A stretch of 44,756 nt of DNA from Chloroflexota bacterium. Lineage in GTDB: Bacteria; Chloroflexota; Dehalococcoidia; UBA2979. Positions 1 through 44,756 of the stretch are shown piece by piece. Made by a program: the position numbers. Location of the stretch: assembly GCA_027593235.1 (NCBI GenBank), contig JAQCIU010000026.1, positions 1 through 44,756 of the forward strand, written 5' to 3'. Every line of letters begins with the position of its first letter. Within the stretch, counting starts at the first letter, position 1.

Positions 1-3000
1 ACCTCCTGCGAGTTCTGGGTGCTTCACACTTCCCAGTCTCGCTGGAGGTCCCTCCGCAGTCAGCCGTCTCGCAGGTGTGTGGTCAGTACAACTAGCGGCG
101 GTCAGTGAGGGAGATGTGGATGGCGAACGAACCAGGTAGTCAGGGCGGCGGACCCGCCGACGACATCCAGCGACAATTCAACGACGCAGTGGGCAAGCTG
201 ACTGGTCCCGGCGAACCATTGATCGCACTCGGCGCGATTCTCTTCGTCTTCGTCGACATCTTCGGAAACATCATCTTCGATGACTGGGGCGTCGACTATC
301 TGCAACTCGTTCCCGCCTGGTTCGTCCTTGCGGCCATCGGGTTGTTCCGCTTCAAGGGCTCAGCGCTCCCGGTCAACTACACGTTGCTGCTCGCAACGCT
401 CGGGCTGATCGCTGGTTTCGTCGGTGTCCGCGAGATCATCGGGGACCTCGAGAACAGCTTCTTCGACTACGACACCTCGAGCATCATCTTTGGGCTCATC
501 ACCTGGGCCGCCAGCATCGTCATGCTCCTCGGAGCCATCCAGCTCTGGCCGAGCGTGAAGAACGGCTAGCGAAACGAACGGTCCAACGCACGGCGGTTCC
601 CGCAGGGGAGCCGCCGTTCTCCGTTCCCGAAACATCGAGGGCGCCCCGTCGCGCCCCTGCGAGTGCTGGTTCGCCGTTGCGCGCTAGCCTCGCTCGATGA
701 CCTCCCCTCCCGACACTCAACACCGCACGCTCTCGGACGGCATGTCCGAGGCCGATCGTCGCCGCGCGGAGTCGCTGCCCGGCATCGCACTCCTGATCGC
801 ACTCACCGCCGTCGCCCCGCTCGCCGTCGACATGTTCCTTCCCTCGATGCCAACCATGGCCGAGGAGTTCGACGTTCCCTCGTCGACCATGCAGCTTGCC
901 GTCACGCTCTTCCTCTTGTCGTTCGCCGCATCGCAGCTCGTCTACGGGTCCTTCTCGGATCGCTACGGTCGCCGCCCCGTGCTCATGGCCGGCATGCTCC
1001 TGTTCATCGCCGGTGGCGTCATCGCATTGCTTGCGCCCTCTGCGGAGGTGCTCATCCTCGGCCGCGTCGTGCAGGGACTCGGCGGCGGAGCCGGACCGGC
1101 CATCGGCCGCGCTATCGTCCTCGACGTGTTCGGGCGCACCCGTGCTGCCCGCGTCATGGCCTACATGACCATCGCCACGCCACTCGCCCCCGCGATCGCC
1201 CCGATCGTCGGCGGCTTCCTCCATGACGCGTTCGACTGGCGCGCCGTCTTCGTGACACTGATCGCCATCGGCGTCTTCCTCCTCGTCGCCTACCGGATGC
1301 TGATCCCGGAGTCGAACCTCCAGCCGGCGCCGGATGCGTTGAACGCCCGACGGCTGGCGGCCAACTACGCGACGCTCTTCCGCAGCCGCCCGTTTGTCGC
1401 CTACTCGCTCGTCATGGGCCTGATGTTCAGCGGCCAGCTGGTCTTCATCTCCGGTTCGTCATTCGTCCTGATCGACGAACTCGGCGTTTCACCCACGCTC
1501 TTCGGCTTCTCGTTCGCCTTCGTCGCGGTCGGGATCATGAGCGGCGCCTGGATCTCCAGCCGCCTCGTATCCCGCTGGCTGGAAACGCGGGTGGTGCTCC
1601 TCGGCGCGACGATCGCCGCTGGCGCCAGCCTCGTCATGGCCGCCCTCGCCTGGGGCGATGTCGCCAGCCCCTGGGCCGTGCTCCTGCCGATGTTCGCCAC
1701 TGCTGGCGGCCTCGGCATCTCCCGCCCGCCCGCGATGGCCGGCGCGCTGATCCCCTTCCCGCACATGGCCGGACTCGCCTCGGCCGTCATGGGCTTCACC
1801 CAGATGATCTTCGCGACGCTCTACAACATCGGCTACAGCAGCTTCATCGAGGTGGATCAGGTCGCCCTCGCCAGCGGCGTCGCCTTCGCCACCACCACCG
1901 CGCTCGTCATCTTCCTCGCCTTCCGCCCGCCCGCCGCCTCCGAGCTCGCCGCCTCCGAACTCGCCGCTAGGTAGCCGCCGCTCACCCCGGCCCAACGGTC
2001 CGCCCTGCGGACGTCGTGACCACCGAGGTCAGCCGTCACGTTCGTCAGACCGTCGGTGTCGCCGTCGTGGTCCACGCGCTCTCCCGAAAGCCCGCGAGTA
2101 TACGAAGCGCCCTCACGCTCGTATCGTCGCCAGCGAACGTCCGAGGAGGGTTGAACCGATGCCGATCGCCGAAGCGATCCCCGCCGCTGATCTCCTGCGC
2201 GCACTGCGCGACGCCGCTGTCACAGACGTGGTTGCCGTACCCGACACGCACCAGCGCAGCCTCATCGAACTCCTCGATCACACCGAGGACATTCGATTCA
2301 TCCAGGCCGCCACCGAGGACGAAGCCGTCGCCCTGGCCGCCGGCCTCATCGTTGGCGGGCGCCGGCCGATCGTCCAGATCCAGCACGCCGGCCTCTACGC
2401 CTGCGTGAACCACCTCCGAGGAATCGCCGGCGACGGCCGCTTCCCGATGGTCTTCCTGATCGGCCTCCTTGGACGCGACCCCCACCGGATGCCCAGCGAT
2501 CACGCCGGCTCCATGGTCCGTCTCGCCGAGCCCCTGCTCGACACCATGCAGGTGCCGCACTGGCTCCTCGATGGCCCCGCCGACGTCGCAATGGTGACCG
2601 AGGCATTCGCCGCCGCCGAGGAACGCCAGGGACCCACCGCGCTGCTCATCGGCGTGAACACGGCTTAGGGAGCGACCGATGACGACCTCAACTACTTCCG
2701 GCGCACGCATCTCCGTCGACAGCGCGATCGAAGCCCTCGCGCGGCGCCGCGACGACCAGGTCGTGGTCTCGACCATGACCGTCATGCGCCCCTGGCGCAC
2801 CCGCGCCGAAACCGATCGTGACCTCGTCTGCGTCGGTTTCATGGGCGGCGCCTCCACCTTCGGCCTCGGCGTCCAGCTCGCCCGCCCGGACGTCCCGGTC
2901 TGGGTCCTCGATGGCGACGGCTCACTCGCGATGCAGCTCGGCTCCTTGCTCACCATCGCCAACGCCGCCCCGCGCCGCTTCCTCCACGTCGTCCTCCACA

Positions 3001-42000: not shown

Positions 42001-44756
42001 AGCATCGATTCGGTGCCAATCGGGCCACCGCGTCGTCGCGCCTCCGCGTCGGCCTGCGTTAGCGCCGCGCGCGCCCGCCCGGTGAACCTGTCGAACCGGT
42101 CGGGCGATCCAGTCGGCCGCGACATCGTAGTGTGGCCGTTCCGCGGATCCAGCATCCGTATCGTCTGCCCCGACTCCGATGCCGCCCGCACCGCATCCAG
42201 GATCTCCTGACACGCCACCGCGTCGTCGAAGTTCGGCGCCGGCGAGCTGCCCTCGCGGATCCCCCGCTCGAACTCCCGCACCAGCAACCGGAACGAGGCC
42301 AGCCGGTCGTCGCGGTTGTCCACGATCGGCACATATCGAGGATCGACCGGTAGCTCCTCGAGCCGGCGGTCCTCGGCCCCGCCCGCGCGCACCACGCCGT
42401 CCGGCTCCGGGTTCGGCCCCCGCTGCGTCGCCACCAGCACGCCCCTCGACCCCGCGATCGTGATCCGCGCGCCCAGGCTCGGCGCGACGAGCGACGAGGC
42501 AGTCATCGAGGCGACGACGCCGTTCTCGAACAACAGCGTCACCGCGAACGAGTCGTCGGTGTCCGCTTCGCGTGGGTTGCCGTCGGCGTCCATCCGCGCG
42601 GGCATGCGCGTCGTCAGCCGGCCACTCACCTCCGCGACATTGCCGAACCAGTGCCGTAGCCCGTCGATGTAGTGCGATCCCAGCGCGCCAAGCAGCCCGC
42701 CCCCCTGCGCCTTGTCCGAGGCCCAGCTGAACGGCGGCGGCGAATCCGGCCGCGGCCGTCCCATCAGCAGCTCCGCCGACACCAACTCCGGCTTCCCGAT
42801 CCGCCCGCCGTCCAGCAGGTCCTTGATCTGCGCCCGCTGCGGCGCAAACCGGAACTCATGCGCCACCATCGCGGTCAGCCCCTGCTCGCGAGCCAGATCG
42901 CGCATCGCCCGCGCCTCGACCCCGTTGAGGGCGAACGGCTTCTCGCAGAGCACGTGCTTCCCCGCTCGCAGCGCCGCCATCACCATCTCGCGGTGCGCCG
43001 CCGGCGGCGTCGTCACCGCGACCGCATCGAGGTCGTCGCGCGCGACGAGGTCCTGCCAGTCCTCGGCCACCCCGGCGATACCCAACTCGGCGGCCTTGCC
43101 GGCGGCAATCGCCTGGCGGCGGCCCCAGACGACCGGCACCTCCCAGCCCTCGGCGAGGAAGGCGGGCACGTGCACCCGCGCGCCGAACCCGACGCCGATC
43201 ACGCCGATGCGCAGCGGTTGGTTCGCGGTCATCGCGGCCTCCGGTGGATGATGGGACTCGCCGGTGTGTGGGCGGTGAGCATACTCGCGCCGCGCAAGCC
43301 TATCCGGCCCCGGCGACACCGTCGGTGTCCTCCGGAGGATCCACCACGATCCCCAGCTCCGGGTCCCGCAGCTCCGCGTCCTGCGCCACGATCCCACCAA
43401 CCGCGACCGCACAGGCGATCGCCCCCAGCACCACCGCCAACGGCGCACCAAACGCCGCCGCCAGCGCACCGCTCAGCGTGAAGCCCAGCGGTGGACCGCC
43501 GCCCGCCAGCATGCTGCGGAACGCCTCCACCCGCCCACGCAGCGCGTCCGGCGAGATCGCCAGGATCGCCGAGTTCCTCGGAATCATCTGGATCACATTC
43601 GTCGCGCCTAGCAATGCTCCCGCCACCAGACTCAGTCCGAACCAGGGCGACGCCGCAAGCAGCACCAGCGACAGCGCGTAACCCAGAACCCCGAACACCG
43701 TATAGAGCCCCTTGTGGCGGACGTCGCCCAGCGACAGCATCGCCGTCGCCGCAATCATGCTGCCCACCCCCGGCGCGGCGCTCAGCAGCCCGAACCCCGT
43801 CGCGCCCACCCCCAGCGAGTCCGCGAAGATCGGCAGCAACGCCCGGTAGCTGCCAAGCACCGTCGCCGCCAGATCCAGCATCAGCAGCGACACGATCACC
43901 CGCCGCTGCCGCACGAACGCGAGACCCTCCAGGAAGCTCCGCCACGGGCTGTCCGTCGTCGCCTCCGGCGTCGACGGTGTCCGGATCCCGACGATCGCCA
44001 CCATCGCTGCGAGGTAGATCGCCCCGTTCAGCAGGTACGTGGTCCCCAGGTCAAACATCCCGACCACGATCCCGCCGAGCGCCGGCCCGATGATCTGCGA
44101 GGTCTGGCCGATCGTCGCGTTCAGCGCGACGGCATTCACCAGGTTGCGCCGCGGGATCAAGCTCGGAATCAACGCCGTCCGCGCTGGCTGAGTCACGGCG
44201 CTGAACGACGCGTTGAGGAACGTGATCGCATAGAGGTGCCACAGCGAGACCGCGCCCGTCAGCGTCAGCCCCGCAAGCGCGAGGATCAGCACGCCGTTCG
44301 CGATCTGCCCCGCCTGGATCAACCGCACCCGGTTGAACCGATCGGCGAACACCCCGCCCACCATCGACAGCACCATGTGCGGCAGCGCCCGCGCCAACCC
44401 CGTCAGCCCCAGCAGCAGCGCGTCGCCGGTCAGCTCATAGACCTGCCAGAAGATCGCCGTCTGCAGCAGTTGCACGCCCAGCGATGTGAGCAGCAGCGAG
44501 CCAGCGAAACGCCGGTAGTCGCGATAGGCGAGCGCCGCTACGGCGACGCGTAGCCCTCTTTCCCCGGCCTGGCTCCGCGCCATCGGCGCGCCGCTCCATC
44601 CTCGTCATCAGCGAACACAGAGCGTACGCGCCGCTATGGCGAGGAGGGAGGTGGTGGCAGTCGCTAGTGCACTGTCTCAAGAACGGCTTTACAGCGGCCG
44701 ACCTTCTCGAGGATGGCGTCAACTGAGGCGGTCCAGACGAACGGCTTGGGGTTATC

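Follow-up and report, generated by a model that had tools for sequence, protein, structure and literature searches.

By the textbook rule, TAG is the disfavored stop codon of bacteria. The window analyzed here, i.e., the whole 44,756-nucleotide contig C26 of a Chloroflexota bacterium of the class Dehalococcoidia (genome G000; 3,389,648 bases, 68.2% GC), raises the question of why most genes of a GC-rich genome should end in TAG.

Stop codons of the window and of the genome

Genes were called with an independent, self-trained caller based on codon and dicodon log-odds, with overlaps resolved greedily. It placed 41 genes in the window, of which 26 end in TAG, 12 in TGA and 3 in TAA. A Pfam family was found at E ≤ 1e-5 for 36 of them (22 TAG, 11 TGA, 3 TAA), one of which, the HPr-kinase-like gene, lies under Pfam's own cut-off.

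On the forward strand, TAG ends a CDS without Pfam family (189 to 569, stop at 567 to 569) and those of an MFS transporter (697 to 1974), a TPP_enzyme_N protein (2159 to 2668), an LEH/SnoaL protein (3320 to 3694), a HAD hydrolase (8288 to 8938), a nitroreductase (9008 to 9631), a short-chain dehydrogenase (11359 to 12102), a 2-hydroxyacid dehydrogenase (12151 to 13215), a protein without Pfam family (13854 to 14225) and a TetR protein (15870 to 16541). It also ends the CDSs of a PAS-GGDEF-EAL protein (18489 to 20744), 22 residues past the end of the EAL model, and of a TPP enzyme (32532 to 34181) whose model extends to residue 543 of 549. The luciferase-like monooxygenase CDS (3741 to 4943) stops in the palindrome CTAG (4940 to 4943), which it shares with a convergent reverse-strand CDS without confident Pfam family (4940 to 6883; stop at 4940 to 4942, CTA on the forward strand). 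The other reverse-strand CDSs that end in TAG encode an ABC-2 permease (14280 to 14978), a spermine-synthase-like protein (16983 to 17654), a flavin monooxygenase-like protein (22132 to 24084), a VWA_2 protein (24231 to 25454), a DUF3179 protein (25758 to 27113), an enoyl-CoA hydratase (27281 to 28186), a CoA-transferase III that matches its model from 1 to 366 of 366 (28215 to 29417), a protein without confident Pfam family (31313 to 31666), an asparagine-synthase-like protein (36826 to 38445), the HPr-kinase-like protein (38494 to 39360; 27.7 bits, below the Pfam cut-off of 33.3), a GFO/IDH/MocA oxidoreductase (41673 to 43232) and an MFS_3 protein (43300 to 44583).

Two forward-strand TGA stops lie in start-stop overlaps, that of a TPP_enzyme_C CDS (2679 to 3323) in ATGA (3320 to 3323) and that of an MFS transporter CDS (7071 to 8291) in GTGA (8288 to 8291). 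TGA also ends the forward-strand CDSs of a rhodanese (9672 to 10511), a protein without Pfam family (13311 to 13835), a thiolase-like protein (29611 to 30738) and a ChsH2 OB-fold protein (30838 to 31263), and the reverse-strand CDSs of a MarR protein (10772 to 11227), an ABC ATPase (15023 to 15754), a cupin (16505 to 16894), a metallophosphoesterase (21135 to 21704), an MFS transporter (35453 to 36601) and a methyltransferase-like protein (40156 to 41091). A further reverse-strand ORF outside the caller's set, Transglut_core3 (39357 to 39986), has its TGA within the start-stop overlap ATGA (39357 to 39360; forward-strand TCAT). TAA ends a CMD family CDS (17721 to 18299, forward), a cupin CDS (21740 to 22102, reverse) and a formamidase/acetamidase CDS (34230 to 35159, forward).

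The same order holds for the genome, where 1,530 of the 2,768 called genes end in TAG (55.3%), 861 in TGA (31.1%) and 377 in TAA (13.6%). This confirms TAG as the majority stop, reported in the survey's finding as 54, 32 and 13% TAG, TGA and TAA in 3,228 genes. The bias is genome-wide, as had been proposed, with TAG the top stop on 35 of the 37 contigs that carry at least 25 genes, and a higher share in confident genes was found again (62.7% of the 612 genes scoring at least 100). Trinucleotide counts on both strands of the 3,389,648 bases were identical to those given before (TGA 76,275, TAG 24,239 and TAA 5,895).

The survey had worried that spurious genes from a home-made caller might matter. 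All callers used were indeed home-made, and ours left 20% of the genome uncalled, yet it is scarcely conceivable that shadow ORFs of a GC-rich genome inflate TAG. Stop-to-stop ORFs of at least 60 codons mostly end in TGA (20,898 of 31,901), and false calls would thus reduce the TAG share, not increase it. The bias is present in the Pfam-backed window genes, in 176 genes whose orthologues in two genomes of the genus are at least 60% identical (93 TAG, 66 TGA, 17 TAA) and in translation-apparatus genes (20 TAG, 1 TGA, 7 TAA); the first two sets answer the worry about the caller. Moreover, every one of the 52 calls at two control loci was confirmed by Pfam, and 246 of 275 stop sites in 20-kb subsamples agreed with the whole-genome call.

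Stop codons compared with non-stop sequence

We scanned the 60 nt after the stop of the 1,430 genes with a 3′ spacer of at least 63 nt. These genes end in TAG, TGA and TAA in 843, 378 and 209 cases, respectively; the scanned sequence holds 342, 911 and 133 of these triplets in all frames and 96, 288 and 35 in frame. The difference between the stops and their own in-frame 3′UTR triplets (chi2 = 253, P ~1e-55) excludes chance as the source of the bias. The log odds are +1.90 for TAG/TGA, +1.52 for TAA/TGA and +0.39 for TAG/TAA, and TGA is about 5- to 7-fold scarcer at stops than among 3′UTR triplets. TAG makes up 0.802 of TAA plus TAG, and G makes up 0.816 at the A/G-ending codons of Lys, Glu and Gln. 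As the TAG:TAA split is that predicted from third-position G/A bias, the anomaly is better described as underuse of TGA. Apparently, it is best read as TGA avoidance, not as a changed genetic code.

UGA/(UGA+UAG) is 0.36 in the genome and 0.31 once overlaps are removed; 4-nt co-directional overlaps hold 179 of the 861 TGA stops, and all 179 such overlaps have TGA. Composition does not track the trait, because among 11 genomes above 60% GC the stop TAG/TGA ratio, which runs from 0.56 to 3.17, does not follow the non-stop trinucleotide ratio, which is 0.29 to 0.34 in 10 of them and 0.49 in G013 (Spearman -0.38, P 0.25).

TGA use also varies with codon typicality. When the 2,384 genes without overlap onto the next gene were divided into quintiles by score per codon, TGA fell from 39.4% in the lowest to 14.9% in the highest, and TAG rose from 48.2% to 69.6% (chi2 87.9, P 1e-15). 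Random ORFs are about 65% TGA-ended, and the lowest quintile may include such false calls, which would inflate part of this gradient. In the 28 translation-apparatus genes, located by tblastn with Pfam-verified queries, TGA is nearly absent (binomial P 0.0007), and the TAA:TAG ratio is 0.35, beside 0.36 for in-frame 3′UTR triplets.

Genetic code and termination machinery

The genetic code of the genome is standard, with both class-I release factors. RF1 (C73:57242-58306) carries the PET and GGQ motifs; RF2 (C61:33923-35008 plus an upstream frame) carries SPF and GGQ, and Ala beside YR. The presence of both factors had been reported by the survey. RF2 appears intact, which counts against the explanation favored below. 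Aragorn gave 57 matches, an ordinary tRNA set plus tRNA-Sec, with no other suppressor tRNA and no other tRNA with the anticodon UCA among them. The TAG stop of L14 coincides with the end of the L14 Pfam model.

TGA might instead be leaving the stop set, by decay of RF2 or partial reassignment, e.g., wide selenocysteine use, with TAG replacing it. The tRNA-Sec, with a strong match in 18 of 21 genomes of the class, and the single TGA among 28 translation genes would fit. Nevertheless, we regard this as very improbable, given the intact SPF and GGQ motifs of RF2, TGA at 26 to 31% of gene ends including 11 Pfam-backed window genes whose models end normally, and tRNA-Sec as the sole UCA-anticodon tRNA. 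Also against it is the TGA-dependent autoregulatory frameshift site of prfB, CTT TGA C in G000 and CTT TGA C/T in 20 of 20 relatives, which is kept in all, with a Shine-Dalgarno-like GGTG/GGAG upstream.

No molecular feature that was compared sets TAG-rich apart from TGA-rich relatives at equal GC. The frameshift, present in 21 of 21 genomes, gives no such split, and neither does tRNA-Sec; G005 (0.42 TAG) and G013 (0.38 TAG), which lack a strong tRNA-Sec match, are not clearly different. The PrmC NLPY motif is phylum-wide and fails likewise. Only 6 of the 121 Chloroflexota examined yielded RF3, but its absence fails as a correlate, since three Myxococcota with TAG-rich ribosomal clusters carry it.

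Stop codons of relatives

The survey's claim of variation among relatives holds: the TAG share is graded across family and class, from 0.24 to 0.64 in Dehalococcoidia samples of 28 to 149 genes. The trait is thus a property of the lineage, not a peculiarity of G000. Ribosomal-protein clusters rich in TAG are likewise present in other Chloroflexota and in Myxococcota and Acidobacteriota. The latter two phyla show that a TAG preference among highly expressed genes is shared with other lineages, and what sets this one apart is solely the extension of the preference to the whole genome.

A neutral origin, by context-dependent mutation or by stop turnover through nonsense mutation near the 3′ end, is the most probable of the alternatives, although we consider it doubtful. 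In a GC3-rich genome, the sense codons one step from TAG (CAG, GAG, AAG, TCG, TAC, TTG, TGG) greatly outnumber those at the same distance from TGA (CGA, TGC, TGG, TCA), and new stops would mostly be TAG with termination under no selection. Codon usage agrees (GAG 49.8, CAG 26.6, TAC 19.5, TCG 19.2 and AAG 14.5 per thousand codons; CGA 5.7, TGC 5.1 and TCA 2.3), as do orthologue pairs with stops at differing in-frame positions, in which the TAG of the shorter protein lies opposite GAG (5), TCG (3), CAG (1) or CAA (1) in its longer partner (one extra locus being pooled with G003). However, such shifted stops occur in only about 24 of 181 pairs, and TGA makes up 69% of the in-frame 3′UTR triplets that supply a new stop once the old one is lost. 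Stop ratios do not follow non-stop ratios, and neither the codon-typicality gradient nor the single TGA in translation genes is expected from mutation alone. Furthermore, G007, G005 and G008, of the same family and with equal GC and the same codon usage, have TGA as their commonest stop.

The GC-poor members of the family, G010 (39% GC) and G012 (44% GC), use 54 to 61% TAA, 24 to 29% TAG and 15 to 18% TGA. They are compatible with a historical disequilibrium, in which the GC of a TAA-rich, TGA-poor, GC-poor ancestor rose recently and turned TAA into TAG faster than equilibrium was reached. This appears quite unlikely, as A to G pressure hits both A positions of TAA and would not by itself favor TAG. 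Stop turnover is also quick, and equilibrium should therefore come fast: within the genus, 24 of 69 same-position orthologous stops in G001 and 15 of 63 in G003 differ from those of G000, with 7 TAG/TGA double changes in each.

Proposed explanation

RF2 alone reads TGA, whereas TAA and TAG are both readable by RF1. On balance, we favor the explanation that TGA is selected against at real stops, with the RF1-readable TAA and TAG equivalent, through RF1-centered termination and/or leaky UGA, which we infer to be the most likely cause. TAG would be the majority stop because TGA is counterselected at true termination sites genome-wide; TAA and TAG would be interchangeable to RF1, with their ratio set by third-position G-over-A bias (GC3 = 0.875, AT3 = 0.125). 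The remaining TGA would be found mainly where structurally forced, in ATGA or GTGA start-stop overlaps, or where codon usage is atypical. The proximate cause may be an availability or efficiency of RF1 at least equal to that of RF2; alternatively or in addition, UGA may be costly through leakiness.

The base after the stop bears on this explanation. The reported preference for C after TAG (766 of 1,272) was recovered, at 60% of 1,529 TAG stops and, with at least 10 nt to the next gene, at 61.3% (n = 1,270). C follows TAA in 61.4% and TGA in 40.0% (TAA versus TGA, P 1e-11), so that TAA resembles TAG, not TGA, as expected if the factor that reads TAG mostly reads TAA. The C excess after TAG is partly compositional, as C follows 47.9% of the non-stop TAG triplets of 3′UTRs. 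A second in-frame stop follows within 10 codons with equal frequency after TAG (90 of 843), TGA (44 of 378) and TAA (25 of 209), giving no hint of compensation for a leaky TGA.

Comparison with known systems

According to passages of the published surveys, TAG is at about 20% at any GC and "universally suboptimal" (PMC3549826), is indifferent to GC while TGA climbs with it (PMC8789281), and as UAG is "almost absent" from highly expressed genes (PMC8954436). The clash with the published rule that the survey asserted stands against these passages; its wording that TAG is lowest at high GC does not, as the papers describe a flat response. The lineage is a natural exception to the rule of TAG as a disfavored bacterial stop, although, as the survey cautioned, large surveys may already list outliers of this kind in their supplements.

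Bacteroidetes, Cyanobacteria and Firmicutes are GC-poor or mid-GC, with TAA as majority stop. G000 differs from them in its 68% GC and in that TAG itself is in the majority. They resemble it in that TAG equals, exceeds or nears TGA as a property of whole lineages, with TGA/TAG of 0.90, 1.08 and 1.40, respectively, in Table 2 of Trexler et al. 2023 (PMC10471768), the main text of which does not contain "Chloroflex."

As far as the relevant passages of Wei, Wang and Xia 2016 (PMC4989110) go, highly expressed genes avoid UGA and, in 3 of 14 species including M. tuberculosis, prefer UAG, and UAG:UGA use is expected to track RF1:RF2 abundance by codon-decoder adaptation. G000 is similar in shunning UGA and favoring UAG in translation-apparatus genes; it departs from their regression, which predicts UAG above UGA only at AT3 > ~0.71, by having UAG above UGA genome-wide at AT3 0.125. 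The set-point would drift among close relatives, as such adaptation would predict.

PMC12421855 links retention of the prfB +1 frameshift to low TGA use, and a lost motif to high GC. The retained motif in G000 and 20 of 20 relatives fits this link, TGA being used sparingly; unlike the published pattern, it is kept despite high GC. The motif is also kept in nine of nine assessable control genomes from other phyla and thus leaves the difference unexplained. Lineages with a reassigned TGA have genetic codes 4 and 25 and low GC. They share with G000 the scarcity of TGA as terminator, as described for Mycoplasmatota in PMC12421855. In contrast to them, G000 keeps RF2 and TGA at 26 to 31% of gene ends, its only UGA-reading tRNA is tRNA-Sec, and its GC is high.

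The TAG majority is reproduced by an independent gene set

The assembly of the Chloroflexota bacterium under study (GCA_027593235.1, here G000) comprises 3,389,648 bases on 78 contigs at 68.2% GC, with 89.7% completeness and 0.6% contamination; the window is all of contig C26. Genes were called with an independent caller of our own, based on stop-to-stop ORFs, a self-trained codon and dicodon score, and greedy resolution of overlaps. It gave 2,768 genes over 80.5% of the genome, ending in 1,530 TAG, 861 TGA and 377 TAA codons. The survey's finding that TAG is the majority stop genome-wide was thus recovered by a second caller (1,530/2,768) and by four agreeing gene sets. 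The reported climb of the TAG share in the most confident genes was also seen, with 62.7% at scores of at least 100, and the trinucleotide counts were exact on recount.

Spurious genes had been a worry of the survey. Background ORFs are TGA-rich, as TGA terminates 20,898 of all 31,901 ORFs of at least 60 codons in the whole genome, and false calls are therefore unable to create a TAG majority. Genes with Pfam or orthologue support keep the TAG bias: 36 of the 41 window genes are Pfam-backed (E<=1e-5) and end in 22 TAG, 11 TGA and 3 TAA codons, and the 176 G000 genes with orthologues at 60% identity or more in two same-genus genomes end in 93 TAG, 66 TGA and 17 TAA codons. TAG is the top stop on 35 of the 37 contigs having at least 25 genes. 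As checks on the caller, G000 was subsampled in 20-kb pieces, where 246 of 275 stop sites agreed with the whole-genome call, and all 52 calls in two control loci (L212 and L217) were Pfam-confirmed ribosomal or translation genes with models reaching the C-terminus. The TAG-majority signal is independently reproduced and is not made by false gene calls.

Among the window genes is a minus-strand row at 36826-41091, consisting of asparagine-synthase-like (36826-38445), HPr-kinase-like (38494-39360), transglutaminase-core (39357-39986) and methyltransferase-like (40156-41091) genes. The four together resemble a putative lasso-peptide biosynthesis cluster.

The genetic code is standard and both release factors are present

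The code of G000 is the standard bacterial one (table 11), and both RF1 and RF2 are present, the latter point in line with the survey. RF1 (C73:57242-58306, 354 amino acids) carries PET, a recognition tripeptide of the PxT type, and GGQ. It is 88% identical to RF1 of 'MAG: Dehalococcoidia bacterium', the best named relative, and the next matches (52-61% identity) are from Chloroflexi/Chloroflexota, Dehalococcoidia and Anaerolineae MAGs. On this basis the organism is taken to belong to the Chloroflexota, class Dehalococcoidia in the naming of these records. RF2 is encoded at C61:33923-35008 together with an upstream frame that ends in VRL and a stop at CTTTGAC, and prfB thus has the classic CTT TGA C +1 frameshift site. 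Its SPF and GGQ motifs are present and align with those of nine RF2s from other phyla. The two genes score alike per codon (prfA, 79/354; prfB, 85/361).

Family models end where the proteins end. L14 is matched over residues 1-122 of 122 with TAG next, and in the window a CoA-transferase model is matched over 1-366 of 366 and an EAL model over 2-236 of 236. Reassignment of TGA (codes 4 and 25) was rejected, as RF2 is intact, tRNA-Trp has the anticodon CCA, and a UCA anticodon occurs only in tRNA-Sec. Aragorn gave 57 hits in the whole genome (89.7% complete), among which the sole stop-reading anticodon was that of tRNA-SeC(tca) on C32, where Rfam model RF01852 scores 72.7 bits (C32:91259-91351). 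Use of TAG for pyrrolysine was rejected at the tRNA level, with no CUA-anticodon tRNA among the aragorn hits for the whole genome. Two further aragorn entries, a 'tRNA-Cys(aca)' of 99 nt and a tmRNA in permuted form (tag EALQDIVVCAAIHVA), look like false positives; it listed no standard tmRNA in the G000 contigs.

TGA, not TAG, departs from composition

Three comparisons point to TGA, not TAG, as the anomalous codon. The ratio TAG/(TAA+TAG) is 0.802, versus a G share of 0.816 at A/G-ending Lys, Glu and Gln codons, and the TAA:TAG split is thus as expected from third-position bias in any synonymous pair. For the 1,430 genes with at least 63 nt before the next gene, we counted triplets in the 60 nt after the stop. 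These show the 'usual' GC-rich pattern, with 911 TGA, 342 TAG and 133 TAA in all frames and the same order in frame (288, 96 and 35), whereas the real stops of the same genes do not (843 TAG, 378 TGA and 209 TAA). The log odds of stops versus in-frame triplets are +1.90 for TAG/TGA and +1.52 for TAA/TGA, but only +0.39 for TAG/TAA. Computed in the terms of Povolotskaya et al., as set out in passages of PMC3549826, the selection term on TAG is -0.41 for G000; the fit in those passages gives +1.21 at the G content of this genome.

Part of the remaining TGA is kept in place by start-stop overlap structure: 179 of the 861 TGA stops lie in 4-nt co-directional overlaps (ATGA/GTGA), and all 179 such overlaps use TGA. 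This count is approximate because start sites were picked by the model alone; a periodic C signal at +5, +8 and +11 after TGA backs it. Once genes overlapping the next gene were removed (n=2,384), the shares were 59.2% TAG, 26.1% TGA and 14.6% TAA.

Composition as the cause was rejected, since non-stop TAG/TGA ratios are flat over the relatives: 0.29-0.34 in 10 of 11 genomes above 60% GC, the other being G013 at 0.49 (the row for same-genus G003 pools one extra locus). Shared CTAG stops were likewise rejected as the source of the TAG stops, as 53 convergent pairs supply just 93 of the 1,530. These pairs overlap by exactly 4 nt, the two stops of a pair sharing a palindrome of the CTAG or TTAA type; of the 106 genes, 93 end in TAG and 13 in TAA. 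The CTAG at 4940-4943 is an example in the window. CTAG is scarce in G000, with 1,994 sites or 0.20 of the mononucleotide expectation. As C precedes about 57% of 1,529 TAG stops, roughly two in five CTAG sites are stop codons.

Stop usage bears signs of selection

When non-overlapping genes are ranked by score per codon, the lowest quintile has 39.4% TGA and 48.2% TAG and the highest 14.9% TGA and 69.6% TAG, so that TGA declines and TAG increases with the score; some genes of the lowest quintile may be spurious. A stronger sign comes from the translation-apparatus genes, which end in 20 TAG, 7 TAA and 1 TGA (n=28), versus 861 TGA in 2,768 genes overall. This set, of ribosomal-protein, EF-Tu, EF-G, IF1, SecY, Adk and MAP genes, was retrieved by tblastn with Pfam-verified Myxococcota queries, of which L23, L22 and L29 gave no match in G000. 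The gene for ribosomal protein L3 stops at a TGA within an ATGA overlap. The TAA:TAG ratio in translation genes (0.35) equals the in-frame 3'UTR ratio (0.36).

At position +4, C follows 61.4% of TAA, 61.3% of TAG and 40.0% of TGA stops (T, 22.0%), so that the base profile of TAA resembles that of TAG and differs from that of TGA. The C excess after TAG noted in the survey is real, but it is partly compositional, because non-stop TAG and TAA triplets in 3'UTRs precede C in 47.9% and 44.4% of cases. Back-up stops as a mark of leaky TGA were rejected, being equally frequent after all three stops.

The TAG majority is the upper end of a graded trait

Relatives vary in TAG share, as the survey had reported; the range found here is 0.24 to 0.64, from 60-160 kb of general, non-ribosomal sequence for each genome. 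Within the genus, the share is 0.584 in G003 (87/149 genes), 0.445 in G001 (61/137) and 0.30 in G002; this last genome reaches 51% GC over its 60-kb sample, versus 68-69% for G000, G001 and G003, and its orthologues average 73% identity. Other members of the family have 0.64 (G011), 0.42 (G005), 0.40 (G008), 0.31 (G007), 0.29 (G010; 39% GC, TAA-rich) and 0.24 (G012; 44% GC, TAA-rich), and five genomes from other families of the class have 0.38-0.46. TAG shares were unchanged in the subsets with a G000 homologue. In 10-kb flanks of prfA run through the same pipeline, the TAG share was 0.40 for Chloroflexota (8 GC-rich loci, 146 genes), 0.32-0.36 for Acidobacteriota (13 loci, 178 genes) and 0.33 for Myxococcota (7 loci, 89 genes), the last with 0.60 TGA. 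Judged by these relatives and flanks, a genome-wide TAG majority, found within the sample in G000, G003 and G011, lies at the top of a gradient that runs through the lineage.

Within 20-kb stretches surrounding the ribosomal-protein cluster, TAG exceeds TGA in 32 of 40 class genomes, with one tie, and is the top stop in 22; at GC of at least 0.55 the shares are 0.49 TAG, 0.21 TGA and 0.30 TAA (837 genes). Of 20 genomes from the other classes of the phylum, 15 have more TAG than TGA, and the TAG/TGA/TAA shares at the same GC threshold are 0.39/0.31/0.29. The controls behave similarly in 8 of 10 cases, and the preference in translation genes is thus not peculiar to the lineage. TAG ends 21 of 32 genes in Hyalangium, 17 of 22 in an Anaeromyxobacteraceae MAG, 17 of 31 in Corallococcus, and 10-11 of 28-29 in four Acidobacteriota; the opposite is seen in a Nitriliruptorales MAG (8 TAG, 15 TGA) and one Myxococcales MAG (3 TAG, 9 TGA).

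The ribosomal clusters of the GC-rich Myxococcota loci L211, L212 and L217 are mostly TAG; the prfA flanks of seven Myxococcota genomes, including these three, are 60% TGA. The Acidobacteriota loci considered with them are L214, L215 and L218-L220. Such TAG-rich Myxococcota clusters contradict the statement that UAG is almost absent in highly expressed genes.

Stops turn over directionally within the genus

At the same aligned position, orthologous stops are identical to those of G000 in 45 of 69 cases for G001 and 48 of 63 for G003. The differences are asymmetric, each toward the overall usage of its own genome: G001 has TGA opposite a G000 TAG six times, with one reverse case, and G003 has TAG opposite a G000 TGA six times, also with one reverse. 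Stop usage is therefore shifting fast and directionally between sisters of equal GC, and a drift in the set-point of the termination machinery fits this better than composition does.

Candidate molecular correlates

None of the features tested (prfB frameshift, tRNA-Sec, RF3, PrmC and non-stop ratios) proved to be a molecular correlate of the TAG trait. Loss of the prfB frameshift was rejected, the motif being kept in all 21 class genomes (G000 and 20/20 relatives) and in the nine assessable controls; in the tenth, RF2 is cut by the contig end. A role of selenocysteine was rejected too, with a strong tRNA-Sec match in 18 of 21 class genomes that bears no clear relation to TAG share. An RF2 defect does not fit the intact SPF and GGQ motifs and the modest local differences.

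RF3 (prfC, TIGR00503) was not found in G000, where the top match is EF-G at 187 bits versus a cut-off of 467, and it was found in just 6 of the 121 Chloroflexota genomes sampled (G000 and 120 others, at least 85% complete). Its loss was nevertheless rejected as the cause: three Myxococcota with TAG-rich ribosomal clusters have RF3, and the RF3-bearing genome G130 still has 9 TAG and 1 TGA in its ribosomal-protein cluster.

The catalytic motif of the PrmC/HemK family is NPPY. The G000 homologue, two genes downstream of prfA and outside the window (C73:59159-60067), scores 227 bits on TIGR03534 (NCBIfam), above the cut-off, and carries NLPY in place of NPPY. By tblastn over 80 named prfA loci (L001-L080), the motif was readable in 70. 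All readable Chloroflexota-type loci except L004 have ANLPY, this type comprising titles with Chloroflexi/Chloroflexota, Dehalococcoidia, Anaerolineae/Anaerolineales, Caldilineales/Caldilineaceae, Chloroflexia, Tepidiformaceae or Thermomicrobiaceae; other phyla have NPPY, or NPPW in one case. NLPY was rejected as the cause, as it is phylum-wide and phyla with NPPY show the same TAG preference in ribosomal-protein clusters. The tRNA-Trp of G000, the one genome inspected for this feature, has C11-G24 in the D-arm, to which a Hirsh-type effect is reportedly linked.

In a MAG titled Nitriliruptorales (locus L253), prfB has a CCT TTG AC-type +1 frameshift site (TAC CTT TGA C), after which comes an RF2 frame of 350 aa. 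According to passages of PMC12421855, none of 2,658 Actinomycetota genomes has this motif; either this MAG is misplaced or a deep Actinomycetota branch retains the motif.

DISCUSSION

The 'TAG paradox' is the puzzle of why TAG remains a rare stop when TGA, of identical composition, becomes commoner with GC. It has been debated from cross-species averages, with very few trend-breaking lineages. The lineage described here breaks the trend: its non-stop sequence keeps the usual TGA excess and its real stops invert it, so that composition can be separated from selection at termination sites, a separation that the published surveys describe as beyond their reach.

Selection against TGA where translation terminates is the reading with the most support; ordinary GC3 pressure would then settle the choice of TAA versus TAG. 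Termination centred on RF1, or leaky UGA, may be the proximate cause. UAG ends 71% of G000 translation-apparatus genes; in the ribosomal-protein regions of the class members sampled, the figure is about half at GC of at least 0.55. We consider it doubtful that the whole class and much of the phylum have UAG as their best stop at high GC, perhaps in connection with phylum-specific features of the termination apparatus such as the PrmC NLPY motif or the absence of RF3 from most genomes. If it were, Dehalococcoidia would be a natural counter-example to the views that UAG is universally suboptimal and that TGA rises with GC, and the published model would predict RF1 in excess of RF2. The RF-abundance model gains a direct and cheap prediction, namely that a bacterium of 68% GC would have RF1 at least as abundant as RF2. 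In practice, a TGA/TAA default built into gene finders or expression designs from work on Proteobacteria or Actinomycetota should not be carried over to Chloroflexota, and the same caution applies to translation-gene clusters of Myxococcota and Acidobacteriota.

Our literature search found no paper on a TAG majority at high GC, though survey supplements beyond its coverage may well list such genomes, and none that names Chloroflexota or Dehalococcoidia in connection with this trait; the string 'Chloroflex' does not occur in the main text of PMC12421855, PMC10471768 or PMC3466146. Lineage differences in TGA/TAG are already published (PMC10471768, in its Table 2), and passages of PMC4989110 describe a few species whose highly expressed genes prefer UAG.

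Codon-decoder adaptation is a published frame that would fit these data. According to passages of PMC4989110, UGA is everywhere shunned in highly expressed genes and UAG:UGA follows the supply of RF1:RF2. The expectation of Wei et al. 2016 in that source agrees with G000, where TGA ends 1 of 28 translation genes versus 861 of 2,768 overall. For G000 the regression given there would predict RF1 > RF2, with RF2/(RF1+RF2) below about 0.37, at an AT3 (0.125) for which its authors expected the opposite; Pseudomonas has about 0.75 in their table. RF2 autoregulation is kept at high GC here, in agreement with the correlation described in part of PMC12421855. The TAG preference in translation genes is far from the picture drawn in passages of Belin and Puigbo (PMC8954436), where only 18 of 196 genomes, none from Chloroflexi, have more than 15% UAG in highly expressed genes.
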